Part shown: positions 3,838 to 57,900 of the stretch, one piece after another | Numbering within the stretch: the first letter of the stretch is position 1 | Layout of the letters: every line of letters starts with the position of its first letter | NCBI GenBank assembly: GCA_045132115.1 | Contig: JBGURT010000028.1 | Location: 2,293 to 66,292, forward strand | DNA: 64,000 bases | Reading direction: 5' to 3' | DNA from: Kiritimatiellia bacterium | GTDB lineage: Bacteria; Verrucomicrobiota; Kiritimatiellia; RFP12; UBA1067 | Notes under the pieces: model-generated | The model's input: only the letters and a program-made list of their open reading frames with translations | Databases searched by the model: none | Told to the model about the DNA's origin: nothing | Position numbers and translations under genes: made by a program

Positions 3838-4754
3838 GGCGGCAGTTTGATGACCTGCCCGGCGCGGATGCGTCCGTCGGTCGAGATCTTGTCCTTGTTG
3901 GCTTCGCGAATCTGCTTCCACGCGCTCACCGTGCCGTAGAAATCCTTCGCGATCTTGTAGAGCGTATCGCCTTCCTGCACGGTGTAGGTTTCCGGGAGCG
4001 GTTCAAGAGGTTCGGGCTTCGGCTCCTTCTCTTTCTTCTCCTTTTCCTTTGCCTCGATCTGAATCGGCGGCGTCATCGACTCCTCGGGCTCTTCGCTCAA
4101 CAAGAGCGCCACATCCTTGGAGAACCTGATGCGGTCCTCTTCATCCTCTTCTTCGTCCAGTAGTTTCTTGACGTCCGCTACATCCACCGGCCGCTCCGTG
4201 CTCTCGCCTTCACCGATCGACCCCACGAGACGCCGCACGCGCTCGGCCTCGAGCTGGAGCGCGGCGATGTTCCGGTCTCGGGTAGCCACCTCGGCTTCCA
4301 GCCGCGCCTTTTCGCGCTCGAGCTCCACGATGCGCGCTTGCTGACGCTGCAAGTCTGCGACCATGCCGGCATTCTCGCTGTTGCGGATATCGCGCTCCAT
4401 CTTCGTCTTGAACTGCTCCTCGCAAAGCTTGGCGCGCTCGATCGCGATGGCGCTTTTGTCGCTCTTGGGGGCGATCTCCGCGTAAATGCGGTAGTTGGCG
4501 ATCGCCTCCAGATACTTGTGCTGATGATCGTGCTGAAGGCTCGCGAGCTGGAAGCGCGCCGTGGCGTTCATCGGAGAGTTCGCGATCACCTTCTCGAAAC
4601 CTTCCGCCGCCGCATCGAGCCGCCCTGCCTGGTAATCGGCCATCGCGCTGCGAAACGCCGCATTGTCGCGATCGCTCACCGTCGCCTGGCGCCGGTCGAC
4701 ATCGCATCCGGCCAAAGCCACAACTGCCGCCGCCGCAAAAAACGCAAGTCTCAT
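3831..4754 (-). CDS. lipoprotein with coiled-coil region and C-terminal LysM domain
   Basis: Likely start MRLAFFAAAAVVALAGC (lipobox LAGC); coiled coil; acidic linker; C-terminal LysM (YTVQEGDTLYKIAKDFYGTVSAWKQIREANK). Confidence 0.7.
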   Translation of the reverse strand: MRLAFFAAAAVVALAGCDVDRRQATVSDRDNAAFRSAMADYQAGRLDAAAEGFEKVIANSPMNATARFQLASLQHDHQHKYLEAIANYRIYAEIAPKSDKSAIAIERAKLCEEQFKTKMERDIRNSENAGMVADLQRQQARIVELEREKARLEAEVATRDRNIAALQLEAERVRRLVGSIGEGESTERPVDVADVKKLLDEEEDEEDRIRFSKDVALLLSEEPEESMTPPIQIEAKEKEKKEKEPKPEPLEPLPETYTVQEGDTLYKIAKDFYGTVSAWKQIREANKDKISTDGRIRAGQVIKLPPR

Positions 4755-4755
4755 T

Positions 4756-5619
4756 TTATTCCTCCTCGTCTTCTTCGTCAAATTCATCTTCTTCCTCTTC
4801 TTCATCTTCGTCGTCGAACTCGTCCGGCGTATCGTCGATGAAGAAATCGTCTGTCTCGGGGCTCGTACCTTCTTCTCCGTTCCCCGTCTCGACCTCCGTA
4901 GCCTTGGCGTAGGAGGTTTCCCCGTTCCCTGTCTCTTCCTCCTCCTTCGTCGCTTCTTCGGCGGCGATTTCCAGTTCCGTCTTGCCGGGGCGCTTGTACG
5001 ACGCCGCCTTGAGCCGCGGATTCGAACGCTGCAGCGTGGGGTCGAGCTCGTTCAACTCCTGAAGGTTCGCAAGCCCGAAGTGCTCCAGGAAGAACGGCGT
5101 CGTGCCGTACAAAAACGGATGGCCTGGAAGTTCGCTCTTGCCCACGAGACGGATTATCTCCATCTCCATCAAGGTCTTGATGTTCGCGGTAACGTCCACG
5201 CCGCGGATTTGCTCGATCTCGCTTTTGGTGATCGGCTGACGGTAGGCGATGATTGCCAAGGTCTCCAGCGAAGCGCGGCCCAAGCGGCTCGGGCGGTCCA
5301 TCTTGAGCATGGCTCTCACGTATCTGCCGCAGCTCGGGACCGACTGGATGCGATACGCGCCGGCGGTGCACACGAGCGAAAAGCCGCACTTCGCGACTTC
5401 AAGCGCCTTGCCAACGCCTTTGATCGCCGCGTCCACTTCGCGCGACGTGCAACTTTTGTAGACGCCGAAAACCTCCGCATTGTCGCCGTCTTCCATCTCC
5501 AGCGACCTGATCGACTCGCGGATCTCGCCCGCCGTCAACGGCGTCTCGCTCGCAAACAACAGCGCGCCAACTATCTCCTGCAACGATCCCGGCAAGGGAA
5601 TTTTCGTTTCGTCACTCAT
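4756..5619 (-). CDS. scpB: segregation and condensation protein B with long polyacidic C-terminal tail
   Basis: 287 aa; ScpB winged-helix core (LEVAKCGFSLVCTAGAYRIQ, GRASLETLAIIAYRQPITKSEIEQIRG); tail DEFDDEDEEEEEDEFDEEDEEE. Confidence 0.85.
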   Translation of the reverse strand: MSDETKIPLPGSLQEIVGALLFASETPLTAGEIRESIRSLEMEDGDNAEVFGVYKSCTSREVDAAIKGVGKALEVAKCGFSLVCTAGAYRIQSVPSCGRYVRAMLKMDRPSRLGRASLETLAIIAYRQPITKSEIEQIRGVDVTANIKTLMEMEIIRLVGKSELPGHPFLYGTTPFFLEHFGLANLQELNELDPTLQRSNPRLKAASYKRPGKTELEIAAEEATKEEEETGNGETSYAKATEVETGNGEEGTSPETDDFFIDDTPDEFDDEDEEEEEDEFDEEDEEE

Positions 5620-6412
5620 AATCGTCAGGTTTCTCCAAAGGTTTGTCCTCGTCTTCCTCGTGCGACGGAAGAATCGTTATTTCGTGGAAGGCGGCGTTTT
5701 GGTAGATGATCACGCGGTGCTGCCTCAACAATTCCAGAAGCGCAAGGAAGGTAACGATGATTTCGCCCTTCGCCGCGTCCGGCGCGAAGAGCGAAGTGAA
5801 CGCCAACTGTCCGGAACTGCGCGCTCGCTCGAGCACGAGATCCATCTTTTCGGGCACGGAATAGCGAATGCCCTTCAATTCCTCCTGCGGCATTTCGTTC
5901 GCCCGTGCGACAACTTCCTGGAACGCCGTCAAAAGATCGTAAAGGTCCAGATTCTTCAAGGCGCCACGCGCGTCCGCCGCCGTTTTCTCGAACTTCGGCC
6001 GGCCGCCGCCGTAGTCGAAGGCATTCTGCCTCAGCGCTTCCATGCGCTCGAGCCGCAGCGCCGCATCCTTGAACTTTTTGTACTCGATAAGCTGCCGCAC
6101 GAGGTCGAGGCGCGGATCCGTCCACTCTTCGTCCTCGCCGCTCTCGGCGCGGCGGCGATCTACCGGCAACAGCATCCGGCTCTTGATCACCATAAGCGTG
6201 GCCGCCATCACCACGAATTCGCCGGCGATGTCGAGATTCAATTCCCGCGCCTCTTTGATGAACTTCATGTACTCGGCCGTCACGAACTCGATCGGGATGT
6301 CGTAGATGTCCAGCTCCTCGCGCCGGATCAGATACAACAGAAGATCCAAAGGACCCTCGAACACATCGAGCGTCACCTTGTAGTCCTCGGTCAAAAGTTC
6401 GTTCTGCGCCAA
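5612..6412 (-). CDS. scpA: segregation and condensation protein A
   Basis: 266 aa, FEGPLDLLLYLIRREELDIYDIPI... ScpA kleisin signature; immediately upstream of scpB. Confidence 0.88.
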   Translation of the reverse strand: MAQNELLTEDYKVTLDVFEGPLDLLLYLIRREELDIYDIPIEFVTAEYMKFIKEARELNLDIAGEFVVMAATLMVIKSRMLLPVDRRRAESGEDEEWTDPRLDLVRQLIEYKKFKDAALRLERMEALRQNAFDYGGGRPKFEKTAADARGALKNLDLYDLLTAFQEVVARANEMPQEELKGIRYSVPEKMDLVLERARSSGQLAFTSLFAPDAAKGEIIVTFLALLELLRQHRVIIYQNAAFHEITILPSHEEDEDKPLEKPDDYE

Positions 6413-8510: not shown

Positions 8511-8618
8511 TTCTGTTCTCCAAAATTTATCTTTGTATTATACCAAAAATCGCTGGAAAAAACAACTATGGATTTCATACGCATGAAAGGATGATTTCAT
8601 ACGCATGAGACGGCGATT

Positions 8619-11169: not shown

Positions 11170-11215
11170 TTTAGTGCGCGTATTATATCAAAAATCGCCC
11201 CCAAAAGTCAAGAGC
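11170..11215 (-). promoter_or_regulatory. sigma70-type promoter for tRNA-Thr: -35 TTGACT, 18-nt spacer, extended -10 TGATATAAT, GC-rich discriminator ACGCGC
   Basis: Minus-strand sequence cTTGACTtttgggggcgatttTTGATATAATACGCGCactaaaaacgcc immediately upstream of tRNA 5' end. Confidence 0.6.
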
Positions 11216-11242: not shown

Positions 11243-14200
11243 TTACTTCGTTATTTCGACGCTGTAAAACGCCTCGCTACCGCCAAGTAAGCCACCGGAC
11301 GGATTTGGCGTCCAAGCCTCGCTGTTGCCAATAGTCGTGTCGGCCGGCTCGGAAGCAAGCATCGCCTGCAGCGTCGCGCCTTGACGGAAGTTGTAGGTAA
11401 GACCCGGCTTCGTCTTGGCCGTCGTGATTGTGCTCGCGCTACCGCCAAGGAATACATTCGCGCCCTCGCCGGTAAACACTTCCGCCACGATATCATCCTT
11501 AACCTTCGCCGCAGCCAGATCCACCACGCCTTCGGTATCCGGCGTCAGGCCCTGGAGGAAATCCTTAATATCGTTATCGTTGCCGCCGATAATCTGCACA
11601 TTGGCGCCATTCGCCTTGTAGCTGTTGGCAGTAGACGCAACGCGCACCGTCACCTTGTTCGCCTCCACATTCGCAGGAATCTCCACCACTACATCGGCGG
11701 TACTCGCGCTCGGCGTGACCGTATACCCGTTCTCCGCATCGCCCGTCACCACCGCATCCGGATCGCCGGCGATCGAAGGAGCCGCCTCGACTTTAAGACC
11801 ATCCGTATCCTTGACCAGTTTGAGACCCGATGCCAAATCATCGGTGGTAAAGCTACCCGCCGGCGCCGAACCCCAACTAATCAGCGTAACCGGAGCGGTT
11901 ATATTGAGCGCCGTAAGATCGACATCAACCGTGGTATTTGCCGCAACCGCAAGCTTGTTGCCATATCCAGACGCAAGTCCGGTGCTCGTGAATGCCAATA
12001 TAGCCCCATCCACAAGTTTTATGCTCGGAGTGGGCGCTACCGCCAACGGCAAAGTGAGCGTACCGGTAACCGTCAAGTCTCTATTTGATCCCCACCCGGT
12101 AATCTTTCCGTTGCCAGACAAATTACGGACAGTCGCCTGTACATTGTTGGCCGAAAGGAAGAATTCGCTAGACGAATTATTAAGCACGACATTGCAATAA
12201 AGATTTACGCCAGTGTAGGTATTGTCCACCCGATATATTCCCAAGTGACCGCCACTTACGCTTATGGTACCAAGCTCCTCGACCGTCTCCGCCGTCTGGG
12301 TATTGTCCAATGTGAGCGTATTAGTGCCGTTCTTCGTGAGTGTGTGCCCGTTGAGCGTCAACTTGGATTCGGCATGGTCGGTTTCCCGGATGTAGAAATT
12401 GCCGGAGCCGCCAATCGTGGAGTCTGCGGTCAGTTCCAGCCAAGCCACTACCGCCGTATTGGCATTGCCAAACGATATACCATTGTTGACCAACGCGCCA
12501 CCTGCCAAAATCACTTTGGCCCCGGAGGTGATGCCATACCCATTAAGGTCAAGCGCAACATTGGCCGGAATGGTAATGTCAGCCGCTTCCGTACAGGCGC
12601 AGAGCATCTTGACTGTCAGCGGAGCGTCTTGAGTGGCCGTAGTGGTAGCAGCACTCATTGCCGCTGCAAGCGTAGCATAGTAGGATTGAGTGCCGATCTG
12701 GGCAACGGCGGCGGTAGTGGTGTAGTCCTCAGGAGCCGCAATCACCTCTTCATTGGCAGGGGTTACCTGCTTAACTTGGGTGCCACCTGCGATGTATGCG
12801 CCGACGGCGGCATAGTTGATGGTCACTTCGTCGCCGGCATATGCCCAGTATCCGTTTCCGGAAACGAGCGTCGCACCCGCCACCTCAATGGCCGTATGCT
12901 CAGGCACCACGATGGTGAAGTTCACGATTACCGGCTCGGGGAAGGTATAGGCGTTGCGCTCTTCTTCGGTGAGCTTCTTGTCGAACACCGCAATCGCCTC
13001 GATCTTCATACCGGTAGCGTTATCCCAACCCTGACCAGGCCTGGTGCTCATGCGCAGACCGCCAATCGTCGCACCATAAATGCCGCTATTGGCATCGTCC
13101 GAATACCCAATCGAGTTCACGAAGTTGGTGGCATTGATTGCGCCTTCCGACCCACTGCACAACAGCGTCGTACCGTCATACGTAAACGCCATCACTCCGC
13201 TTGAGGCTGGCGGCTCGCCATCACCAGTGCCCACATCTATCGTCGCGGCACCAGTATTGTCGCCCTTGCTGGCCTTGATTTGATTACCTACCGTCAACCG
13301 GAGCGTGGTACGATCATGCGCCTTTTCGCTCTCGGCGCAACTGGTGAAGAACACGCGTCCAACATTCGAATTATAAACAAGATCGCTGTACTTGACGAGC
13401 GCGGTAATGGCACTTACCCCACTTGCCAGATTCACATCCACGCCCTGATACTCGTTGCCATCAACCGTAGCAATCGTTATCATCCTATCGTCGCCAAAGG
13501 TGTTGCCGTGCCAGTCGAGCGAGCAACCATCAACCGTGCGACGGAAGTCCTTGTTCCATGCCGCAATGGGAGTAGGCGCTACTGTCGGCTCCGGTTCCGG
13601 CTCCGCAGATTTCACCACCTCATTGCTGTAGATGTGCTTGGTCTCGCCGTTGGTCCAACGAACATCCACCCGGAAGCGGACATAGTTGGAACCAGGATTG
13701 TCGAACGAGGTATCCACCCATTCTCCGCCCTCGTCCGACGCATTACCCTGGAGCACATACGTAATCGGCATTGTGGCATCCGCCACCAGCGTCTCATTGG
13801 TGGGCGAATACGTAATCACTGGCGTTGAACCGTTCATTGTCAGCGTGGCCGTAAAGGTGCCAGAACCCATTGGATTCAACCCTAGTACATAGCACTCCCA
13901 CCACTTATAGCCGCTTGATGTCTGGCTATTCTTAATGGTATCAATGTAGCTCGCCGGGACTCCCATATCCGTAAACCACGAATACGGCACAGGATAGTCG
14001 GTGTCAGTGACCTGCTCCGACTTCGGATCACCAACAACAAAGTTAAGAGTATTGCTGTTCTTGACCTCTACCGAACATTCGCGATCAAGATTCGGCAGAT
14101 AAATGGTAGTTGGCTTAGATAGATATGTCGATGCGTAAATAAGCGGATAGGTGCCTTTTGGCATATCTGTGGGCGCGTCAATCCTCAGCTTCCAGTCGGT

Positions 14201-16903
14201 GATCGAAGCCATACCATTACCAAACTGCACTATCGCTTCGGAAGTTGACTGGTCGGAAGTGAGGTTAAGGTTCAGCAGCACATGCTCGCCAACCGACATG
14301 TCATACACCTTGATAGTCGTGCCTGCCTCCTGCACAAATGTACCTGTGCCTGCCAGCGTCAGCGTCTCCTCGTTGGCACTTTCAATGTTGAGCGAGTTGG
14401 TGAGGCTCTTGCTGTTTTCAAAAGTAATAGTCGCATTGGAACCTGCAATACTCAACTTCCCGGTGCCGTTAATGGTCGAGTTCGACACAACCGTGAACGA
14501 CGAGATTCCGTTCTGGTTGATGGCAAATGTATCATTGGCCGCAATTGTTCCACCCGCCATGACCAGCGAGCGGGTAAGTTCATAATCGTCGTTCATCGTC
14601 CACGTTTCCCCTTCACCAACGACAATCTTATCCTCGGTCATGCGCATTACAACATCGCGATGTACGGTAGTTCCGTTTGTGTCAGTCGCGTTGAGCGTAA
14701 GGATCATCCTCTGCCGATCGCGATTGGCCGGAATCACCGGATCGAAGGTAATCTCCCAGTTGCCGGCCGAAGCCTCCGTCACATGCACATTCGCGTCCTT
14801 CACCAGCTCCACATGGCTCGGCGTCGCTGTAAGCGCAGTCACTGTCGTTGGCGTCGTCACATAAAGCGTCGAACTGCCAATCGAACCGTCAGCGAGATAG
14901 CCATCCACCAAATCTGTAGCGGGCTTTCCATCCGCCGCATACTGGATGGAAGTAAACAATGCCGGCATTTCCGACGATGCGCCACTGCTGCAGGTCGTGA
15001 TTTTCGCATCGGAAGGTTCGCCATCCACAAGCGCACCATATACATATGGCGTAACCGAGAAATAATAATCGGAACCATTTGCGAGTCCATTTATGGTTTT
15101 GCTACGGTCAGTTGCTAAAGCCACTTCAAAAACATTCTCACCAGTAAGCGGGATCACATCCGTCACCTTAAAGTCACCAATTACCACATGTCCGTTATAA
15201 GTGGCGTGTCGCTTGTAGATGCGAAGCTGCACCGTCTGCCCCGCATATTCAGCAAGGCTCTTCGTGTTCTCTTTCCAAGTCCCAGGCCAGTACGCCCAGT
15301 TAATTTCTGGGACAAACAATTCGTGCCAATTACCGTCTTCACCGCAGATTTCAATCACTACATTGTCTTTGCATGCGTCGCCGCTCTTATGGGCGCCGCC
15401 GCTGATCTTGAAAGAAAGCTCTGAGTCTGACGTTATCGTTAGCGGCGTTGAGAACTGGTAGAAGCCATAAGTAAGGTCCTCTGCGTCCAAAGAGATTGAT
15501 GCAGCTCCGTAGTTATTTGTTGCATACCAAATATTTGCTGGATAAGCACTACCTGTCGTTGCATCCGAAAAATCAGCAGTCCAATCGATAACCTCGTTTG
15601 AAGTGCGGCGCTTACCTTTGATATAGAACATATAGTTCTTATCCGCATAGCAATCCGGGAAGGACCAAGAGAGCGTAACAGAGTTGCCGACAACTCTCGG
15701 AATCGGATCAAGCTGCGGTTTGGCGCGCGGATAGTGATCAAGCCAAAAATAATGCACAGGACCAGTCTTTACGTTGTAAAACTTGTCGCTCGCGTTACCG
15801 CCGTATCCATATACCAAATGGACATAATCTTCTTCATTCTCAACGCCCCATCCATCTGCGACCACGGCGTGACCACCAATACCAACGAAAACAGGAATGC
15901 CTGCTGACAGCGTTTGAGTCACCTTTTCCACCACATCGCTTTTTACGACACCTTCCGTATTAGTTACATTTCCACTACTATAGCCGATGGTGTACCAATC
16001 GCGCTCTGCGCCATGCGCCGATGTATATTTTGTTGAAGTCGACTCGCCTACATTATAGCTCATTGATGCCGATTGGTTGAGCCACAACACATAGCGTCCG
16101 ATTTCATAACGCTTGTCCTCTTCCGCGCCAGTCTTTCCGCGCATATCGCCGGAATACGAATAAGTGTCGGACATCTTGCTCCAATCGAACGGAACAGAGC
16201 CGTTGAAACGGATGGCGAAGTTTTCGCCACGCAAGTTGTGCGTCACCGTCTCAGTTCTTGCAGGATACTTCGGCCACTGCAGTTCCCTGAATATCGCCGC
16301 ATCAGCAATAGAAACGCAACCTGCACAACTACGACCACGCCAAATATAATCTGAAACCTTACTGGAAACAGGCGTCAAATCGTTCCAAGGCTGGTTTTGG
16401 TTGTACTTGGAATCAACGAACGGCTCGATATTGATATCCGAGCCCGATCCGGAACCCGCAGACAGAAGCTTGCGCACCTTCGTTCCTGCACTCGTTTCGG
16501 GCTCCGCGAGCAGCTTGTCCCAGCGCGCATGGCGCCCTTTCGTTTCGTCGGCTTCGGCTGCCGCCACTGCCGCATCTGCCGCATCGAGCATTGCGCGTTC
16601 GGCCGAATCCTCCTCCCCTTCCGAGAAGTCGTTTTGCGAAAAGCCGATTATTGGCGTCGCGCGGTCGCTGCCGCTCAAGAGGATATGCCCGGAAGGTGCA
16701 AGCCGCACCACCCAAAGGTTGCCGCGCTGCCCAATACTCTCAACGCTACGATCGGGTAGCGTTCTCGCCGCCATCTTGCTTGTCTGCAGGAAGCGCTCGG
16801 CCGCAGTTAGCGCAGTGGCCTCGTCATTCGGCGAAGCCGCGCAATAAATCGCCATACCGATTGCGCTGAATAAGGCGAGCAAAAACCTAGAATACTTTCT
16901 CAT
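11243..16903 (-). CDS. giant secreted protein: C10 (streptopain-like) cysteine peptidase domain + FN3-like + LamG-like + PATR beta-helix repeats, C-terminal FY motif
   Basis: 1886 aa; signal peptide; C10 motifs (NQNQPWNDLTP, Cys in AGCVSIADAAIF, His in GGHAVVADGWG); PATR-like repeats (LTLNGHTLTKNGTNTLTLDNT); ends GGSEAFYSVEITK. Confidence 0.8.
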   Translation of the reverse strand: MRKYSRFLLALFSAIGMAIYCAASPNDEATALTAAERFLQTSKMAARTLPDRSVESIGQRGNLWVVRLAPSGHILLSGSDRATPIIGFSQNDFSEGEEDSAERAMLDAADAAVAAAEADETKGRHARWDKLLAEPETSAGTKVRKLLSAGSGSGSDINIEPFVDSKYNQNQPWNDLTPVSSKVSDYIWRGRSCAGCVSIADAAIFRELQWPKYPARTETVTHNLRGENFAIRFNGSVPFDWSKMSDTYSYSGDMRGKTGAEEDKRYEIGRYVLWLNQSASMSYNVGESTSTKYTSAHGAERDWYTIGYSSGNVTNTEGVVKSDVVEKVTQTLSAGIPVFVGIGGHAVVADGWGVENEEDYVHLVYGYGGNASDKFYNVKTGPVHYFWLDHYPRAKPQLDPIPRVVGNSVTLSWSFPDCYADKNYMFYIKGKRRTSNEVIDWTADFSDATTGSAYPANIWYATNNYGAASISLDAEDLTYGFYQFSTPLTITSDSELSFKISGGAHKSGDACKDNVVIEICGEDGNWHELFVPEINWAYWPGTWKENTKSLAEYAGQTVQLRIYKRHATYNGHVVIGDFKVTDVIPLTGENVFEVALATDRSKTINGLANGSDYYFSVTPYVYGALVDGEPSDAKITTCSSGASSEMPALFTSIQYAADGKPATDLVDGYLADGSIGSSTLYVTTPTTVTALTATPSHVELVKDANVHVTEASAGNWEITFDPVIPANRDRQRMILTLNATDTNGTTVHRDVVMRMTEDKIVVGEGETWTMNDDYELTRSLVMAGGTIAANDTFAINQNGISSFTVVSNSTINGTGKLSIAGSNATITFENSKSLTNSLNIESANEETLTLAGTGTFVQEAGTTIKVYDMSVGEHVLLNLNLTSDQSTSEAIVQFGNGMASITDWKLRIDAPTDMPKGTYPLIYASTYLSKPTTIYLPNLDRECSVEVKNSNTLNFVVGDPKSEQVTDTDYPVPYSWFTDMGVPASYIDTIKNSQTSSGYKWWECYVLGLNPMGSGTFTATLTMNGSTPVITYSPTNETLVADATMPITYVLQGNASDEGGEWVDTSFDNPGSNYVRFRVDVRWTNGETKHIYSNEVVKSAEPEPEPTVAPTPIAAWNKDFRRTVDGCSLDWHGNTFGDDRMITIATVDGNEYQGVDVNLASGVSAITALVKYSDLVYNSNVGRVFFTSCAESEKAHDRTTLRLTVGNQIKASKGDNTGAATIDVGTGDGEPPASSGVMAFTYDGTTLLCSGSEGAINATNFVNSIGYSDDANSGIYGATIGGLRMSTRPGQGWDNATGMKIEAIAVFDKKLTEEERNAYTFPEPVIVNFTIVVPEHTAIEVAGATLVSGNGYWAYAGDEVTINYAAVGAYIAGGTQVKQVTPANEEVIAAPEDYTTTAAVAQIGTQSYYATLAAAMSAATTTATQDAPLTVKMLCACTEAADITIPANVALDLNGYGITSGAKVILAGGALVNNGISFGNANTAVVAWLELTADSTIGGSGNFYIRETDHAESKLTLNGHTLTKNGTNTLTLDNTQTAETVEELGTISVSGGHLGIYRVDNTYTGVNLYCNVVLNNSSSEFFLSANNVQATVRNLSGNGKITGWGSNRDLTVTGTLTLPLAVAPTPSIKLVDGAILAFTSTGLASGYGNKLAVAANTTVDVDLTALNITAPVTLISWGSAPAGSFTTDDLASGLKLVKDTDGLKVEAAPSIAGDPDAVVTGDAENGYTVTPSASTADVVVEIPANVEANKVTVRVASTANSYKANGANVQIIGGNDNDIKDFLQGLTPDTEGVVDLAAAKVKDDIVAEVFTGEGANVFLGGSASTITTAKTKPGLTYNFRQGATLQAMLASEPADTTIGNSEAWTPNPSGGLLGGSEAFYSVEITK

Positions 16904-18081
16904 GATGCTTTCCTCCTGGGTAAAGATTCAATTTCGGCAAGGCATGCGGCTCTTGCATCCTCGTCTATAAATTTTGGTTCGCGCCCTTTGTAGTCAATCT
17001 CTACCGCTCCATCGCGAGCGAGAAGTTGGGCGAGGCGGTTCAGAACACAGGCGTCTTCCCGAGTCATGGGCTTTGCCTGCGTCTGATATGGCCACGCCGC
17101 CGGCGCAAGCATCAAAAGTCTGCCGTCAGCAGTCTTGTCGAACAACTTGCCGCCAGGTTTGTACATTGGCGAAAAGCCCATATTCTTTAGCACCACCACC
17201 TTGGCACCGGAATCAAAGGCAAGACGCGCGATTTCGCGCTCGCCATCGGAAATGCATGGCGACACCAGCACCGCACCGTGCTTGGCGGCGGACAGCAACT
17301 CGGCGCATTTTTCTTCGAACCTGGCGCTAGAGCGCTCCATCATTGGAACACCTACGGCATCGTGGGCTATCTTGCTTCCTCCGCCAGATTTGGGAATACG
17401 CTTATATGCAAAGTCGCTACGAGAGCATTGCACCTGCAAAAGCGATGGCGCCGAAAGCAACGCGATGTTGCCGATTACCGAAAAACGACCGGTAAATTCT
17501 CCAAGCGGCAACACTACATCGTGGAGTACCCGGAAGTATTGCGGGTTATCGCGTTTTGTGGCGAGGCGGCGCGGATTGTCGGCGACATAATCAAGCATCG
17601 CCTTCAGCTGCCCCTCATGGAACAGGATTGTATCTTGGAAGCCTGGAGACCAGGATAGGCCGACACAAGAATTCGCCGGCACGCAACCAGATTCGACGTA
17701 GTTCCGTACCTCGCCACTGTTGGCGAGAGACTTCCAACGCGCCGCGGCACCGGCCTTTAAACCGCGCACCAACTCGCCCATAGGCTTCGGCAGCCGCTCG
17801 CGAACATGTACCACAAAGTGTAGATGGTCAGGCATCAGTTGCCGCACCAATATGCGAACTTGGGGATACAGGCGCGGCATCACATCGAGAGCGTCAAGCA
17901 CCGCCGCACCTTCTGGCGTGGGGACGATGTTCCATTCGCCGCCCTTGCGCACAAGGCGCCCCAATGCATCGTTATGTCTATCCGCAAGAGTAAGCGTAAT
18001 CATATATATGCAGGGGCTGGAGTAATCCCAATCCAGGCAGCGTCTCAACATCGAATGCTTGATCTCTTGGCGGATAGGCAT
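16900..18081 (-). CDS. fusion protein: N-terminal RAYT/IS200-like HUH Y1 domain + C-terminal DprA/Smf-like Rossmann domain
   Basis: 393 aa; HUH motif MPDHLHFVVHV; WSPGFQDTILFHEGQLKAMLDYVADNP resembles RAYT helix with catalytic Tyr; C-terminal region aligns by eye with DprA core; ATGA overlap with downstream giant gene, 3-nt gap to upstream one. Confidence 0.55.
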   Translation of the reverse strand: MPIRQEIKHSMLRRCLDWDYSSPCIYMITLTLADRHNDALGRLVRKGGEWNIVPTPEGAAVLDALDVMPRLYPQVRILVRQLMPDHLHFVVHVRERLPKPMGELVRGLKAGAAARWKSLANSGEVRNYVESGCVPANSCVGLSWSPGFQDTILFHEGQLKAMLDYVADNPRRLATKRDNPQYFRVLHDVVLPLGEFTGRFSVIGNIALLSAPSLLQVQCSRSDFAYKRIPKSGGGSKIAHDAVGVPMMERSSARFEEKCAELLSAAKHGAVLVSPCISDGEREIARLAFDSGAKVVVLKNMGFSPMYKPGGKLFDKTADGRLLMLAPAAWPYQTQAKPMTREDACVLNRLAQLLARDGAVEIDYKGREPKFIDEDARAACLAEIESLPRRKAS

Positions 18082-34614: not shown

Positions 34615-34665
34615 GCGGAATGCGCGTATTATATCATATTCTACCACCATTTGTAAAGGGGGAAA
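34615..34665 (-). promoter_or_regulatory. sigma70 promoter for tRNA-Tyr/Val: -35 TTTACA, 18-nt spacer, extended -10 TGATATAAT + ACGCGCA discriminator
   Basis: Minus-strand cccccTTTACAaatggtggtagaatatgaTATAATACGCGCAttccgcaaag; same 16-mer as at tRNA-Thr and hisG promoters. Confidence 0.6.
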
Positions 34666-37407: not shown

Positions 37408-38589
37408 TCAATCATCTATCACCACTCTACACCATTCACTATATTTAGCAACAGCCTCTTCCGCCTGATTCCGAGAGTCGAACTTCAAAACAAGAGTGCC
37501 TATTGTTTGATTCGCACCAGTAAAGGATGTGACTTTATCACCCGGCTTCACCCAAAGATCATTTTGAACAAAATACTGCTTGGCAAAATCTTCGTCAATC
37601 TCAAGCGACTTGAATGTACCTGACTTGTTGGAATGTACAATAAACTCAGCCCACGAACCATTATAAACTGGGTCGCTCATTGGCATCATCGACAAAGCGA
37701 GCGCTCCACGAACACTGTTTTCAATCAAATCTTGCCCAGTAGCCAGCTCAAGCATCTCTGAAAGCCTATTGCCGCCACCTCGAGGCGATAGTTCCATTAT
37801 ATAAGGTTTGCCATCGGCTGCGACTCTGGTTTCAATATTGTAGATTGATGTACCAAGATTAAGGAGCTTTATGAGACGTTGAATCTCGCTTCGCAATTCA
37901 TTTTGTGCCTCTTTGGGCATCTCACTCGGCCAGGAATATGCTGCTGGCGTGTAGGGGTTTGGCGCAGTAGAGTCAAAATACTGACAATTGAAGGAGCAAA
38001 AAACGAGTTGGCTGCCTATTGAGAATGAGTCCGTATCAGATGATAAATATGCGTTATCCAAGAACTGTTCGATAATTATGCGACCACTGCGAGATTCGGA
38101 ACGGGCATATTCAATCGCTGACGCCAGCTCAGCACTCGAGCTAACACGAGAGCAACCTTTAGAGCCTGCTGAATCAACGGGCTTAACGATTACAGGGTAG
38201 ATAATCTCATCGTTAGGTTGGTACCGCTTTGGACAGTTAAAACCATTTACTTCCAAGAAGTCGCGAAATCGGTCTTTGTTTTGAAGTATCTCCACTGATG
38301 CAAGCGGCGGGAATGGCAGGCCCATTTTCTCGGCGACATAAGCGGCGGTCACAACGCCAGGATCGACGCCAAACGAAAGAATACCGTCAATTTGCTTCTC
38401 CCGTGCTACCTTCAATACTGCATCTCTGTCGATTATGCTGACATTGACATATTCATCGGAAAACTTATGCGCGATGTTGTCGGGCAGATAATCTGCAGTT
38501 ATGACATAGACTCCCAACTTGTGCGCAGCCTCGATGACCGGCAACAAGTAACGAATCCCGCCAAGCAACATCAGTTTCTTTTGCTTCAC
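37408..38589 (-). CDS. ATP-grasp domain ligase
   Basis: 393 aa; pre-ATP-grasp + ATP-grasp (IVKPVDSAGSKGCSRV, IIEQFLD, YIMELSPRGGG). Confidence 0.7.
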   Translation of the reverse strand: MKQKKLMLLGGIRYLLPVIEAAHKLGVYVITADYLPDNIAHKFSDEYVNVSIIDRDAVLKVAREKQIDGILSFGVDPGVVTAAYVAEKMGLPFPPLASVEILQNKDRFRDFLEVNGFNCPKRYQPNDEIIYPVIVKPVDSAGSKGCSRVSSSAELASAIEYARSESRSGRIIIEQFLDNAYLSSDTDSFSIGSQLVFCSFNCQYFDSTAPNPYTPAAYSWPSEMPKEAQNELRSEIQRLIKLLNLGTSIYNIETRVAADGKPYIMELSPRGGGNRLSEMLELATGQDLIENSVRGALALSMMPMSDPVYNGSWAEFIVHSNKSGTFKSLEIDEDFAKQYFVQNDLWVKPGDKVTSFTGANQTIGTLVLKFDSRNQAEEAVAKYSEWCRVVIDD

Positions 38590-44279: not shown

Positions 44280-45124
44280 GGCATGACCTTCGCTTTCTTT
44301 TTTTGTCTTGAAAGCCGTCCCAACCGGCGATTCAGAGTCTCGCGCTTCTTGCCACGGGCAAAAAGTTTTTGCACGCGCAGACTCGCTTTGTAGAAAGCCA
44401 GCACCATCCGTTCGTAAATGCCGGGCGGCAGTTTGGCGACTGTTTTCCCGAGCATCTCCGCAATCTTCTTTTCTGCACAGTCTCTCTCCGGCGACGGCGG
44501 CAAACACGCCAGAGCCTTCAAAAACGCCCCTGCATCATCCCAGGCGCCAAGCTCGATTTCGTCCTCAATGCCGAATGTGCAATAGTGATACTTCGGGTTT
44601 TTCGCGAGATACGAATCCCGTTGCGGATTCGCGGCATCGACGGCAAACTGGAAATCGAAAATCCGCAAATGCCCGTCCGCTCCGCAAGTCATATTCCAGA
44701 TGCTTACGTCGCGGTGGGTTATCCCGGCCTTTGCCAGCGTTTCCGCCATGCGCACCATATCGTCCGCGAACCAAGGCTGTGACTTTCCTTCCGGCAGCAT
44801 GTGTTTTAGTTCCGGACCCGGCAAGAGTTCCTGGATCTGGAAAGCCTTTTTCCCGTCTGGCGAAATCCAAACTCCAAGCGGCCGAGGACAAATGTCCGGG
44901 TTCACGGCGCGACACCGCTCCAGCATTTCATGCTCGTTGACGAGAGAGCCGGGCGCGACGGATGAGCACTTGACCAGCACCTCCATGCCGTCTTTTTCGC
45001 CAATGTAGAAAGCATCGTTTATGAGTTTGTTGAAGTCCTGCCAACGCAATTTAGCGAGCCCGAATTTGTCGCCCTCTCGTTCAAGCAGCTTGTCCCAGCC
45101 GTCTTTGGTCATGCGTCGCTTCAT
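44276..45124 (-). CDS. protein-kinase-like fold protein (lipopolysaccharide/Kdo kinase-like)
   Basis: ORF 44276..45334 trimmed to MKRRMTKDGWD (ATG 45124); catalytic loop ITHRDVSIWNM, DFG-like IFDFQFA. Confidence 0.65.
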   Translation of the reverse strand: MKRRMTKDGWDKLLEREGDKFGLAKLRWQDFNKLINDAFYIGEKDGMEVLVKCSSVAPGSLVNEHEMLERCRAVNPDICPRPLGVWISPDGKKAFQIQELLPGPELKHMLPEGKSQPWFADDMVRMAETLAKAGITHRDVSIWNMTCGADGHLRIFDFQFAVDAANPQRDSYLAKNPKYHYCTFGIEDEIELGAWDDAGAFLKALACLPPSPERDCAEKKIAEMLGKTVAKLPPGIYERMVLAFYKASLRVQKLFARGKKRETLNRRLGRLSRQKKKAKVMP

Positions 45125-46128
45125 TTGAGAACCTCTTCCCATTGTCGGCAAATCGTCTCCGGCGAAAAATCGCGCCGCGCCTTTTCGCGCGCAGCCACGC
45201 CCAATCTGCGGACAAGCCCTTCGTCTTCCATTAGCATGCAAATCGCCTCCGCAACCGACTGCGCGTTGGGCTCTGCGAGCAACCCGGTTTCGCCATCGAC
45301 GATCAATTCGTTCACGCCCGAGGCGTCGGCACATCCGACGGTAGGTTTTCCGCAGAGCGCCGCCTCGACTATCGTGAGCCCAAACCCTTCGCCGGCCGAA
45401 GTCTGGGCGGCAAACGCACAGCCTTCATACGCTGTCGCAAGGTCGCCATATCCCATGAGCTTCACTTTATCCTCAACCCCTGACTTCGCAGCCAGTCGAT
45501 GCAATTCTCGCACGTACCCTTCCTTGCCCCTTCCGTAAAGATGAAGCTCGAACTGCGGATGTTTCGCCGCCGCAATCGCAAAAGCCTCGATCAGCAAATC
45601 CTGACGCTTCGCTTTCTCCAGCGACGCAGGGTAAACTATGAAAGGGCTGTTCCCAAATTCCTGTTCCCCGTTCCCCGTTCCCTGTTCCCCCCCCACCATA
45701 TTCCCGATTGCGACAATTTTCGCCGGTGCGTTTTCGCCAAGAACTTTTCTGGCCGCAGCAATTTGCGAAGGCAAAAGGACTTGCAGAAGCGAAAGCCTTC
45801 CGAACGCCGCCCTCAAATCCCGATTGAACCGGCGCTTGCGCAATTTCCAGAATGGCGCCTTCTTGAAAATCCCGGCAGGTCGCGTATGGAGCTGCATTGC
45901 GACCGGCCACGGAAACTCCTTCGGAAACTCACGCGCAATATCCACCAATTCGTTCGTTCCGGTGACAATTAGCACATCGGCATCCGAGCGAATCGTCTCC
46001 GTGAATCTGGATTTGTCGAAGAGCACCATCTCGTGACCGCGCGCCGACATCGCGGCGGCAAACGCTTTGACAGCACGGTCGGCCCCTCGCCCGGCCTCCA
46101 GATTGTCCTTATATACGAGAATCTTCAT
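45121..46128 (-). CDS. glycosyltransferase family 4
   Basis: 335 aa; GT4 motif EGFGLTIVEAALCGKPTV; contains heptamer repeat and G8 tract at 45661-45700. Confidence 0.85.
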   Translation of the reverse strand: MKILVYKDNLEAGRGADRAVKAFAAAMSARGHEMVLFDKSRFTETIRSDADVLIVTGTNELVDIAREFPKEFPWPVAMQLHTRPAGIFKKAPFWKLRKRRFNRDLRAAFGRLSLLQVLLPSQIAAARKVLGENAPAKIVAIGNMVGGEQGTGNGEQEFGNSPFIVYPASLEKAKRQDLLIEAFAIAAAKHPQFELHLYGRGKEGYVRELHRLAAKSGVEDKVKLMGYGDLATAYEGCAFAAQTSAGEGFGLTIVEAALCGKPTVGCADASGVNELIVDGETGLLAEPNAQSVAEAICMLMEDEGLVRRLGVAAREKARRDFSPETICRQWEEVLK

Positions 46129-46329: not shown

Positions 46330-46425
46330 TCTTCCGTTTTGTCATGTCAAAAGTCATTACCGGACGGTATTATATCATATCTTTCAGGCGCTTGTCAACA
46401 AATTTCATTCCCGTACGGGAATCGG
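46330..46425 (-). promoter_or_regulatory. consensus sigma70 promoter (-35 TTGACA, 18-nt spacer, TGATATAAT) preceded by perfect 14-bp palindrome TTCCCGTACGGGAA
   Basis: Minus-strand attcccgtacgggaatgaaatTTGTTGACAagcgcctgaaagatatgaTATAATaccgtcc; ~200 nt upstream of GT4 start. Confidence 0.5.
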
Positions 46426-48289: not shown

Positions 48290-48345
48290 CGAAATTACCT
48301 TATTTTGATACGTAGGCGCGTATTATATCATTTTTCCGACGGATT
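48290..48345 (-). promoter_or_regulatory. sigma70 promoter for hisG: -35 TTGCAA, 17-nt spacer, extended -10 TGATATAATACGCGCC
   Basis: Minus-strand tcTTGCAAatccgtcggaaaaatgaTATAATACGCGCctacg; lies in 3' end of oprM-like gene. Confidence 0.55.
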
Positions 48346-54159: not shown

Positions 54160-54268
54160 TTCAGGTGAATCCTTTCTGACTTATTTTTGGATATTGTTTG
54201 TATTATACTATAAATCGGCAAAAAATACAAGAGCGGCCCGGTGGCATGGCGATCTCGGCATCTCAGTG

Positions 54269-54982
54269 CTACCACAGGTTTTCAACCCATTCAATCGCGC
54301 CATCCAAAAGCCCCTTGGGCTTGCTCTCGCTTTGACCGGATGGCGTTGATGATTTAGCGACCGGGACCTCCCCGGGACCAGTCTCCTCGCTCTGCGCCTC
54401 CGTGTCTCTGTGTGGTTTTTCTTCGGCTGCTTTACGCGCCTTGCGCTCGGCAATTATACGGTCGGTCTCGGCCTGGATGCGGTCGAACTCTTCTTTCTCC
54501 TTGCGCTTGCGCTCGAGATTCGCCCGATACTTTTCCTCGGCCTTGGCTTTTCTTTCTTTCTCGATCTGCGCCTTCGTTTTCTTGGGCGGCGCGGTGGGTT
54601 TCTTTTTGTTTTCGCTTGTCGCCTTGGCGGTTTCGTTGCTTACGCTAACCACGGAGTTTGAAGGAGCCGCGGAGGCGCGGAGATCTTTCAAAGAATTCTC
54701 TGCGTTCTTCGCGTCTGCTGCCGGCGCAATGGGGTCGTCGCGCCCTGCCTCCCCTAGACCCTCTGTTCCCGATTCCCTGTTCCCTGTTCCCTCTTTTTCC
54801 CTCGTACGCTCGGCGCTTGCGAGGTTGGCGGCTTTCATGTCGGCGAGCTCGGCGCGGTTCGTGGCCATCGCCGCCATTTGCCGCGCCTCAACGTCGCGCT
54901 CGATGGCCGCCAACTCCTCTTCGTCCGGGGCACACCCGGCGACAAGGACGGCCAGCGCCAGCACGTAGAAAAAGCGTATCAC
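54269..54982 (-). CDS. charged low-complexity lipoprotein (hypothetical)
   Basis: 237 aa; lipobox LVAGC; K/E/R-rich; ATGA overlap with stop of giant gene upstream; contains (TGTTCCC)x4 repeat. Confidence 0.6.
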   Translation of the reverse strand: MIRFFYVLALAVLVAGCAPDEEELAAIERDVEARQMAAMATNRAELADMKAANLASAERTREKEGTGNRESGTEGLGEAGRDDPIAPAADAKNAENSLKDLRASAAPSNSVVSVSNETAKATSENKKKPTAPPKKTKAQIEKERKAKAEEKYRANLERKRKEKEEFDRIQAETDRIIAERKARKAAEEKPHRDTEAQSEETGPGEVPVAKSSTPSGQSESKPKGLLDGAIEWVENLW

Positions 54983-57900
54983 CTTATATGCAGATAGAAT
55001 CCGCCGCGCCTCAAAGACCAGCCTTTTCCGTCGCCGTCCTTCACGAGAATCTTGCCGGCGGCATTGCCTTTTATGATTATATTGTCTTTGGACGGCAGAT
55101 AATCAGAGTCGGAAACGCGCATCACCTGCACGCCGCCTTCGGACAAAATATCCGCGAGGTCTACCGTGAGCCCATTTGCCGTTACCTCGACCGGCGCCAG
55201 AAACATCGGATATGCGCCTTCCGGCAGAACGAGCGTGCCGCCATCGAACGATACGTTGCCGGTAGATACTACCGCCTGTTCGCCGGTCACCTTGAGCGTG
55301 CCGCGCACCGTGAAATTCGTGGAGGCGTAAATGGCGTCTGCAATCGTGAGCTCGCCATCGGACGCAATGAGCACGCCCTCCGCCGCCGTCGCCTCGTCCG
55401 ACCCGATCTCGAAGAGCAATCCGCCCGTCGCTTCTTCCGGCACGGTATTCGAGATCACGCCGGTAAAGTCGCTCGCATCAAGGACCTTGAAGGTGGCAAC
55501 CTTGGCCGATGCTTCTGTCGTGCCCGGGCTCACGAACGTGCCGTCTCCCGTTAGCGACTTGATCTGGGTAACAATACCGGCTGTAGTGGCGTAATTGTAT
55601 TTGAGGCCATAGCCATAATCGCCATCCACAAGTTCTAGCTTGAATGCGCATTCGCTGCCGCCTTGCGGAGTAATCGAGCAGCCTGAAAGCCGCAACTTGG
55701 AATTCTCGTTGCCGAAGTTATCCAGCGACGTGTTGCCGAAATTGACGCCGCGGATTTCCAGCAAGCCCTTCCATTTGGCGGAGTCTTTCAAGGCGGTAGC
55801 CGCCGCGCCTTCGGACGCCTTGGGCCGCGCGCCATCCATGAGGATATTGCCTTCGCCGGACACCGCGACGGAAAGTTCGTTCGTCAACACGAGCGTGATT
55901 CCCGCCGGGATGGAGAAGCCTCCGACCACGAGGCTTGGCGCGATCGTATTCGTGGGGGCGCTGTCCTCGGTGAAGTGCAACACGTCGCCATCGATAGGCA
56001 AGGTGGAGACCTCGGTGTCGCCGTCGAGATAGTAGACCTCCGTATCGCCGTCGACCACACCATCCCCGACCGTCCTGACATAAACATTCATAGCCTCGCG
56101 GGCGGCTTCAGTCTCCATGTAATAGCACCGCTTGGTCGAATCGTACCCGAACGACTTGAAGCGGATTATGCCGCTGTTGGAGGTTGGAGCGCAAGTGACG
56201 CGCGGATTGCTGGTAGAGTCGAGGAATTCCTCGCAAACGCCGGTCAGATCGATGCGGCCGGCGGTGCGGAGCCCGATCAGACAATCGGTGGGATCGAAAT
56301 GCAGCGTGGCGTCTTCGCTCATGTAAAGCGGCACCGTATTCATCTCGATCGCCCCCACATGGACGGTAAGATCAGTCGCGTTGGACATGATGCCGCTAGG
56401 CTCCAGCGCAAACCCGCCGATCGACTTGCGCACGGTGATGGGCTGCGTACCGGTGAAGACAAGATCGCCTACGACCGCATTTTGATTCTGGCCGTTATCC
56501 TCGTTGAGGACAACGTCGAGCCACTGTTCGCAATCGCCTCCGGAGGTGATCGTGACATCGGCATCTTCGAGCGGCAGCGATCCATCGTCGCCTTCGGCCG
56601 CCTCGCCATTGATGGTGTTGATCCAGACCCCGCCGGCCGGTACGTACCAGTCGTTTACGTACCAGTCGTTATCGCCGGTCGAGGAATCAAGTGTGCGCTC
56701 CGATTTTCTGCCAGGCGAGATAAACGGATATTTTTCCGCAAGCGACGCACTCATTGTAGCGCCAATCTGCTGCTGCCACACCTTGATCATGCCGATCTCG
56801 GCCGGATCGTCCGATGCCGGGCGCGTAAGTCCGTTCGTCTTGTCTCCATTGAAAATCGAGCCAACCTGGAAGCCGCTGCCGATCGACAGCCCGGAAGCTG
56901 GATATTGGACTACATGCACGCCGTCGATATAGACATTCACATACGAGGAATTCTTGGAGAATACCACCAAGTGATGCGCAATTGTGGCCGCCTTCACTTT
57001 CATCGCGGCGAGCGTCGTGTAGGATTGCTCGCTGCTCTTGCCCCAGACAAGCTTGATCTCGTTTTCGGTAGAGCCGCGAATCAGCGCCAGGAAGCCGCCG
57101 CCGGCCGAGCCGAACATCACCAGCACGTTATCCTCCAGCGCCGGCAAGGTCGCATATATCGCCGCCGACCATTCTGTCGGATACGAATAACCTTTGTAAG
57201 GATGTACACGCATGTAAAGGCCGCCGGTTTCCGGATCGAGCGATTGCGCCACCGTGAAACCATCTTCCTTCAAATCGCCGTCCGTTCCGCCGGTGCCGGA
57301 GTTCTTGATGGAGTTGTTGTTGAGCAGGCCGTAATTGATGAACGGCCCGTAATTGTCCGTGTTGAAATCGAAGTCCGCCCACGCGAGCACCATCGGCGCC
57401 CAGGAATATGTCCAGGTGCCGTCGCCGTTGTCAACCGCGGTAATCTTGGAACTGGATGCGGTCATGTCGCTATTGTAAAGTTTGATGGCGGTCTTTTCAT
57501 CGTCCCAAATTACCGTAGTGCGGTCGATGGTAAACTTGCCGTCGTTCGCGAAGCTGTCGACAAGGCCCAGCTGGGTTCCCTCCGCAAACTCGATCATGCC
57601 GGCGCCTGCGTTGTGCGTATTCCTGAATACCAAGGTCCCTGCATCGACCACAATCTTGCCGGTGAAGTTATCAAGGTTGCAATCAAGAATCAGCATGCCG
57701 GCACCCCGCTTGACAAGCGTACCCGACCCCGTAAGCGCAGCCGAAAGCGTTACCTTGTTTTCGCGCGTATCGAGAATCGTGGTCGTACCCTCAGCCAACA
57801 CCGTGCCGTTCGCCTTGGCATTGGCGATTTCCATATTGTCCGCCGCGACGATCTTGCCGCCCATCAAATTCAACGTGGCATTCTCCGACAAGAACTGAAT

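Follow-up and report, generated by a model that had tools for sequence, protein, structure and literature searches.

The window analysed here, a stretch of 64,000 nucleotides from contig JBGURT010000028.1 of a Kiritimatiellia bacterium (assembly GCA_045132115.1), includes a gene for a 393-aa protein situated between two giant Peptidase_C10 genes. The protein is predicted to combine an N-terminal HUH/Y1 nuclease domain, resembling that of the REP-associated tyrosine transposases (RAYTs; REP, repetitive extragenic palindrome) and the IS200 TnpA proteins, with a C-terminal DprA-like domain. The gene belongs to a large family that has no name in the source annotations, Pfam, NCBIfam or PADLOC. A short hairpin module, apparently the cognate REP-like element of the protein, is present at about half of the homologous loci in this family. 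The features of the locus are collected in Table 1.

The open reading frame (ORF) and both of its tight junctions were confirmed as the original prediction had described them. The stop codon of the upstream giant gene is followed by a 3-nt gap and then by the ATG of the 393-aa ORF, and the start of the downstream giant gene overlaps the stop codon of the ORF (ATGA), with the sequence AGGAGG 8 nt ahead of that ATG. Overlaps of 4 nt are present also between other gene pairs of the window. The same three-gene order was found in an independent metagenome contig (L095; homologous loci are designated by the prefix L), collinear with the window and 92.9% identical at the DNA level over 2.26 kb, which indicates that the locus is inherited and not an assembly artefact. 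This conservation, together with a ratio of non-synonymous to synonymous substitutions (dN/dS) of 0.21 against the 93%-identical ortholog, shows that the gene is real and under purifying selection. A scan of the locus for internal promoters and terminators revealed nothing notable, and the gene is probably the middle gene of an operon, co-transcribed with both giants. No second copy of it was found within the window. An ORF of equal length at 37408–38589, considered as a candidate paralog, proved to be unrelated to the 393-aa protein.

Table 1. Features of the locus, with positions in the window.
Feature	Position	Strand	Remarks
ORF of the RAYT-like HUH/Y1 + DprA-like protein, 393 aa (domains as predicted)	16900..18081	minus	ATG start; dN/dS 0.21 against ortholog L095
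Predicted N-terminal HUH/Y1 domain (RAYT / IS200 TnpA fold), aa 11–183	17533..18051	minus	
HUH motif H86-L-H88 in MPDHLHF	17818..17826	minus	H86 and H88 invariant in 30 relatives
Presumed catalytic Tyr165, helix ...LDYVADNPRR	17587..17589	minus	Y165 invariant; on helix 156–178 of the model
Predicted C-terminal DprA/ShosA-like Rossmann-type domain, aa 184–383	16933..17532	minus	
Decayed hairpin-module doublet, encodes loop LANSGEVRNYVESGCVPANSCVG	17659..17729	minus	The loop connects the helix that follows the HUH strand to the next strand of the core
AGGAGG Shine-Dalgarno sequence of the downstream giant, within the 3' end (last codons) of the 393-aa ORF	16912..16917	minus	Read from the sequence
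Upstream neighbour, 1851-aa Peptidase_C10 protein	18085..23640	minus	Context only
Downstream neighbour, 1886-aa Inhibitor_I69 + Peptidase_C10 protein, signal peptide	11243..16903	minus	Context only

Residue conservation was read from an alignment of 30 relatives with 44–94% identity, and an AlphaFold model was built from a 30-sequence alignment (pLDDT 84.5, pTM 0.78). Residues H86, H88, Y165, N169 and R172 were invariant among the relatives and P170 nearly so. The H86-L-H88 motif, part of the stretch MPDHLHFVVHV (aa 83–93), lies on a beta strand (86–93) of the predicted model, and Y165 belongs to the stretch WSPGFQDTILFHEGQLKAMLDYVADNP (aa 144–170); the likeness to the Tyr-bearing RAYT helix that the original prediction had noted was upheld, with Y165, on a helix after the core sheet, followed by the likewise invariant N169 and R172. 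The distance from the HUH motif to the Tyr is 77 aa, the reported range of subclass medians being 58–110 aa. The modelled fold of the N-terminal domain matched the solved RAYT / IS200 TnpA fold.

The sequence searches gave a weaker signal. The NCBIfam model REP_Tyr_transpos (NF047646) matched the 393-aa protein with an E-value of 1.2e-7 and 31.7 bits, the cut-off being 80. The Pfam scan of the window protein produced no match at E ≤ 0.1, PF01797 (Y1_Tnp) included, while Y1_Tnp was weakly present in 18 of the 30 relatives (best E 0.003). A phmmer search of the PDB with the window protein found no match, and the profile of the 30 members reached, among the PDB sequences, ISDra2 TnpA at E 0.066 only. 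The HUH domain is only weakly detectable by sequence, and the evidence from the predicted structure is decisive for it. Judged from its residues and modelled fold, the protein is probably a catalytically intact relative of the RAYTs (TnpA-REP, Y1 HUH superfamily).

The C-terminal domain has a DprA-type Rossmann fold in the predicted model, with ShosA among its closest structural relatives. The motif stretch beginning with VLVSPCISDGE covers aa 271–309. Pfam family PF02481 (DprA) gave no match in the 30 family members even at E ≤ 10. Comparison of the C-domain profile with a DprA alignment by hhalign was not significant, with a probability of 1.2%, and the local match fell on a different beta-alpha-beta unit; this was a weak test, the DprA alignment having been built from relatives of E. 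coli Smf, all Enterobacteriaceae and of low diversity. The Rossmann domain of ShosA binds single-stranded DNA (ssDNA) (PMC11961720), and by analogy with DprA and ShosA the C-terminal domain of the family probably does the same. A beta-rich insert at aa 224–251, located between the first strands and the first helix of the DprA-like domain, includes the invariant residues R228, K231, G233, G235, K237 and P246 (a KxGGGxK loop); it may be absent from the shorter members of the family, judged by the way in which the matches of the representative search were split.

Both domain calls of the original prediction, RAYT-like HUH and DprA-like, are right, mainly by the modelled folds and, for the first, by the invariant HUH and Tyr residues; membership in the curated families was not established for either. 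Significant Y1_Tnp or DprA matches, on which the original prediction had staked its domain calls, were half wanting in the profile searches, with Y1_Tnp weak in the relatives and PF02481 missing, and this outcome was overridden by the structural evidence. No paper on an HUH, RAYT or IS200 protein fused to DprA was found in the literature. The joining of an HUH/Y1 nuclease with a DprA-like fold is a real and previously unreported domain combination, in an unnamed family.

The search for relatives produced more than 2189 matches, and the family comprised 636 clusters at 50% identity (E ≤ 1e-30). All 108 copies in GTDB species genomes were in Kiritimatiellae, Lentisphaeria or 'Verrucomicrobia' metagenome-assembled genomes (MAGs). 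The family as a whole was confined to Kiritimatiellae, 'Verrucomicrobia' MAGs and Lentisphaeria/Victivallales, and where the source was named it was rumen or gut; the family is large and restricted to gut and rumen bacteria of the Planctomycetes–Verrucomicrobia–Chlamydiae (PVC) group. Two to three copies were present in each of 14 MAGs, the paralogs falling into different deep clades. In the family tree the window copy formed a long branch by itself. When neighbours were clustered across 84 non-identical loci, type I restriction-modification (R-M) genes were the only recurrent ones. At most loci, including the window, the neighbours belonged to metabolic, envelope or glycan-degradation operons, and members of the family often adjoined a neighbour on the same strand closely, at -4 to +3 nt.

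In the family alignment, five or six surface loops carried low-complexity insertions that varied between members (e.g. NGEAQN, SVPGHSC, PGTSVPGTGQ and LALPRQAQDRP), and these proved to be one type of DNA element read in different frames and orientations. The element, called a module below, consists of an 8-bp GC-rich stem with a 4-nt loop, followed by the foot CACAG(A/G)AC(AG). It is typically 30 nt (10 codons) long, and tandem arrays also hold partial units of 21 and 15 nt. Modules with the TTCC loop are exemplified by CCCGGCAC-TTCC-GTGCCGGG-CACAGGACAG and those with the AAAA loop by CCTCGCCA-AAAA-TGGCGAGG-CACAGAAC. Selection of sites by the foot only (8 nt) gave 180 occurrences in the 84 loci, 116 within the gene and 64 outside it. 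At least seven of the eight stem pairs were formed in register at 69 of the 116 in-gene sites and at 28 of the 64 outside sites, and at none with a shifted register. Covariation supported the stem. Among 149 foot-selected 36-mers, 71% of the stem cells were paired, compared with 31–37% in slid controls; the stem showed 319 double-sided changes, and none of 500 shuffles reached the observed value.

A covariance model of the module gave 145 matches at E ≤ 1e-3 in 973 kb of DNA from the loci. The density of the matches was 1.01 per kb within the gene, 0.31 within 500 nt of it, 0.05 at 0.5–2.5 kb and 0.004 beyond. At least one module was located in or near the gene at 47 of 83 loci, so that about half of the homologous loci include what by its sequence is a putative cognate REP-like module. 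The type of the loop followed the protein clade (A(G/A)AA in 32 of 32, against T(T/G/A)CC in 42 of 43), and this included two paralogs of a single MAG. Outside the gene, modules were found in frame in hsdR at L025, L031, L033 and L053, and in frame in a secreted protein of about 1000 aa at L017, L019 and L080. The two in-frame modules of the L025 hsdR are situated about 80–125 and 715–760 nt past the end of the family gene. At L017 the modules of the downstream secreted protein are right behind its signal peptide, and immediately upstream of the family gene (4293–4471) five or six modules, facing both ways, are packed into an intergenic REPIN/BIME-like array; hairpins with the conserved foot flank the gene on both sides there (4293–4471 and 5811–5925). 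Near-identical orthologs differed almost only by whole units; L009 and L026, for example, are 100% identical bar one 21-nt unit. No module insertion at a new unique site was seen between close orthologs.

The window copy carries a decayed doublet at a loop where its homologs have intact modules. The sole exact match in the window, at 17710–17727, has a 4-nt loop and a stem of 7 bp that is perfectly paired; the foot is TACGGAAC and not CACAGAAC, and a degenerate inverted unit follows. The doublet folds marginally better than its shuffles (z -1.8). The window enzyme is an orphan: apart from the decayed doublet in one of its loops, the 64 kb are free of modules. The window holds, in addition, in-frame arrays of the heptamer GGGAAC(A/G) in minus-strand coding sequence at 4873–4945, 45647–45691 and 54763–54800. 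They encode GGEQGTGNGEQ, in a loop of an unannotated 335-aa product (ORF 45121–46128), and KEGTGNRESGT, in a 237-aa product (ORF 54269–54982), and the pattern RCRGGRAACRG has six matches in the window against 0.76 expected. In appearance the heptamer arrays are like the family's arrays of NGEARNGEAR partial units and its foot variant ...ACGGAAC, but this is a likeness only.

The explanation that we regard as the best, and consider reasonably probable, is that the family would carry out hairpin-and-foot-specific cleavage and joining of ssDNA, aided by the DprA-like ssDNA-binding domain and acting mainly in cis. The precedent of RAYT/REP and IS200/IS605 suggests hairpin-and-foot cleavage also for the HUH domain of the family. 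As in those systems, the domain would recognise a folded hairpin with its foot on ssDNA, and it would cut and rejoin the strand next to the hairpin through a 5'-phosphotyrosine link. The DprA-like domain would hold the single strand or gain access to it, possibly when it is coated by single-strand-binding protein (SSB) or in a RecA-related manner. Action mainly in cis would lead to modules being seeded and turned over locally.

Several observations weigh against this explanation. The window protein does not reach the thresholds of the curated RAYT/Y1 hidden Markov models, and the relation of the C-terminal domain to DprA is at the level of the predicted fold only. The covariance model gave no matches over the 64-kb window, leaving the doublet unscored, and no intact module is present there. 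Beyond 2.5 kb of the gene only two modules were found in 446 kb of locus DNA, so they are not dispersed in high copy number like classical REPs, and the foot, 5' GT(C/T)CTGTG (CACAGRAC on the other strand), differs from the GT[AG]G of RAYTs. Furthermore, the changes in module copy number between near-identical orthologs were all expansions or contractions of tandem arrays, and since they all fell within such arrays, plain replication slippage without the enzyme could account for them.

A more specific form of the cis-acting explanation is a 'coding-sequence REP' system, which we put forward only tentatively. With its DprA-like domain, the RAYT-type enzyme would capture ssDNA that is exposed where its own locus is transcribed or replicated, and it would paste or remove 30-nt modules in frame, both in its surface loops and in neighbouring genes, among them hsdR and those of secreted proteins. 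In the type I R-M and CRISPR-adaptation operons, as selfish or defensive cassettes, it would be lodged as a hitch-hiker or as an accessory that processes ssDNA.

The contexts of the family allow also a defence role. At least 11 species-level loci (about 14%) are inside type I R-M operons, as verified with Pfam. With X standing for the family gene, the order hsdM-X-hsdS-hsdR was found at L002, L040, L041, L043 and L091, the order hsdM-hsdS-X-hsdR at L025 and L033, and the orders X-hsdR or hsdS-X at L031, L038, L053 and L057. The possibility that the R-M-embedded copies form one clade was rejected, as they were spread over at least five clades. At L075 (5231–8117) the order is cas4-X-cas1, a CRISPR adaptation module in which the family gene has 4-nt overlaps on both sides. 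An ApeA-HEPN gene is upstream of the family gene at L031, and L013 is a defence-like island. In L025 (7314–10859), as well as in L031 and L053, the type I HsdR (1181 aa) has a C-terminal Peptidase_S24 (LexA-like) domain.

We regard the enrichment of defence genes around the family as real, and it may reflect either an accessory role or hitch-hiking in defence islands. If the former, the family would be an ssDNA nuclease working with type I R-M, CRISPR adaptation and other immune systems, and the copy in the window a stray representative; the nuclease might process DNA ends or attack incoming single-stranded DNA. Such a function is rather unlikely: PADLOC gave no match for the four family members run through it, most loci, the window included, are in operons for metabolism, the envelope or glycan degradation, and defence islands may simply collect mobile or selfish genes.

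The modules may instead be unrelated to the enzyme, as slippage-prone hairpin repeats tolerated in loops, the protein then having some other and possibly non-DNA role. The near-identical orthologs, in which every length difference is the gain or loss of a tandem unit, are compatible with this, and so are the in-frame heptamer arrays of other genes in the window. Slippage does not, however, readily explain the 250-fold gradient of module density centred on the family gene, nor does it explain why one module type recurs, in either orientation, at several loops that are not adjacent and also in neighbouring genes and the intergenic flanks. Even between paralogs of a single MAG the type of the hairpin loop changes with the protein clade, and a hairpin with a conserved foot is the architecture of known HUH substrates. 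This alternative is improbable compared with specific ssDNA cleavage and joining.

Still less probable is that the gene is an active, autonomous insertion sequence (IS) of the IS200/IS605 type caught between two genes. The Y1 HUH fold would fit an IS, as would the foot-bearing hairpins on both sides of the gene at some loci (e.g. L017) and the several copies per MAG. Against this, the window has a single copy and no TnpB, and its 3-nt gap and 4-nt overlap leave no non-coding flank to hold IS ends; the original prediction had on similar grounds taken the gene not to be a mobile IS200, and this view stands. The paralogs within a MAG fall into different deep clades and are not near-identical, and the locus is stable between strains, with the low dN/dS given above. 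The Tyr motif of the family is Y-x3-NP, which we take to be of the RAYT type, and not the Y-x3-Q of IS200.

The original prediction had further called the flanking giants paralogous and suggested that the protein between them might mediate recombination or gene conversion between the two and thereby vary the surface protein. Peptidase_C10 was detected in both giants (E 1.7e-22 and 3.5e-21), and the downstream one has Inhibitor_I69 as well. They are paralogs in a distant sense only, with 27% amino acid identity over about 630 aa. At the DNA level no homology was found: the best blastn match between them spans 29 nt (90% identity) and no exact run exceeds 17 nt, which offers no substrate for homologous recombination. 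No repeats or REP-like hairpins common to both giants, or present anywhere in the 64-kb window, were detected in the search for such elements that the original prediction had called for. Another of its proposals, a survey of homologous fusions beside giant PATR/C10 genes, found a C10 gene as neighbour at none of about 80 species-level homologous loci, the neighbours being unrelated and the contexts numbering in the dozens; the clustering of the 84 loci led likewise to the rejection of an association of the family with C10 or giant genes.

Although the gene is wedged tightly between the giants and probably co-transcribed with them, its domains are of fold types involved in DNA-strand transfer and RecA loading, and at some homologous loci (L017, L019, L080) modules occur in frame in a neighbouring secreted protein, recombination between the giants is largely refuted and very unlikely, given their lack of shared DNA, hairpins and repeats, the lack of C10 neighbours among the homologs, and the collinearity of the ortholog locus L095 at 93% identity. 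The 393-aa gene is no sign that the C10 surface proteases beside it are varied in a programmed way. Genes of this kind lodge in many operons, and the place of this one between the giants is an accident of history, with no functional link.

Besides both C10 giants the window includes a third giant ORF, at 54979–63975 on the minus strand, encoding 2998 aa and running to the window edge. A recurrent motif, GCGCGTATTATATCA(A/T)A, is located at 8532–8565, 11176–11210, 28110–28143, 34622–34640, 46363–46381, 48316–48334 and 54197–54230, mostly in intergenic positions. The best sigma-70-like promoter match, upstream of metK at 11211–11182 on the minus strand, falls on one of the copies, and the motif is probably the local promoter consensus.

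If the 'coding-sequence REP' reading is true, the family would represent a new functional class of domesticated HUH enzyme, joining REP biology, ssDNA handling of the DprA/RecA type and immunity. How RAYTs benefit their hosts and how REP repeats spread are open questions on which the family bears. The fusion of the HUH and DprA-like domains suggests concretely how strand cleavage at specific hairpins may be coupled to the capture of ssDNA or to its RecA-type handling. The cognate module is compact and easy to synthesise, and as its loop varies with the protein, matched and mismatched pairs of the two lend themselves to tests of specificity. The repeats are mainly inside coding sequence, as units of 10 codons and with the gene of the enzyme itself included, so that loops of proteins would originate from mobile DNA hairpins. 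A possible connection to immunity is suggested by the family genes found repeatedly inside type I R-M operons and by the one in the cas4-cas1 module.

Among known systems, ShosA of the ShosTA (Shosta) defence toxin-antitoxin pair (PDB 8ZVA) resembles the C-terminal domain in its fold. It differs in its domain partners and in the family having no PADLOC match, and no ShosT phosphoribosyltransferase partner was seen among the annotated neighbours. Compared with DprA/Smf (PF02481; PDB 4LJK, 3UQZ, 3MAJ), the family is without the C-terminal winged helix and the SAM-like N-domain. The SGSLxTA motif, and with it the last beta-alpha-beta unit, also appears to be missing, judged from the motifs; the domain is fused to a nuclease, while DprA stands alone. 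The TnpA of IS200/IS605 (IS608 and ISDra2; PDB 2VHG, 2XM3) is about one third of the length of the family protein and has IS ends, TnpB and near-identical copies, which the family lacks; no TnpB-like gene was seen among the annotated neighbours. The Tyr signature of IS200 is Y-x3-Q (PMC6006769), different from that of the family.

The closest likeness is to the RAYT / TnpA-REP proteins (E. coli YafM, PDB 4ER8; class 2 TnpA-Y1, PMC6006769), with which the family shares the HUH motif and the single Tyr; the modules in or near the gene at 47 of 83 loci, though not at the window locus with its decayed doublet, recall the REPtron logic of RAYTs. The C-terminal additions catalogued for TnpA-REP are DnaA_C, helix-turn-helix and a subclass-2.3-specific one (Quentin et al. 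2018, PMC6006769), and the DprA-like domain of about 200 aa is outside this catalogue. The modules of the family, of 30 nt with a short 8-bp stem, hardly occur outside the gene and its surroundings of about 2.5 kb, in contrast to the hundreds of dispersed intergenic REP copies of RAYTs. For RAYT subclass 2.4 of Cyanobacteria and Bacteroidetes, REPs inserted in frame in the stretch from HuH to Y have been described (PMC6006769), and the main insertion site of the family is the same loop, aa 119–141 in the window protein. The family nevertheless differs from subclass 2.4 in having insertions also at four or five other loops, some of them in the C-terminal domain, and in neighbouring genes such as hsdR and that of a secreted protein. 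It belongs to another lineage, and the additional domain and the foot set it apart as well.

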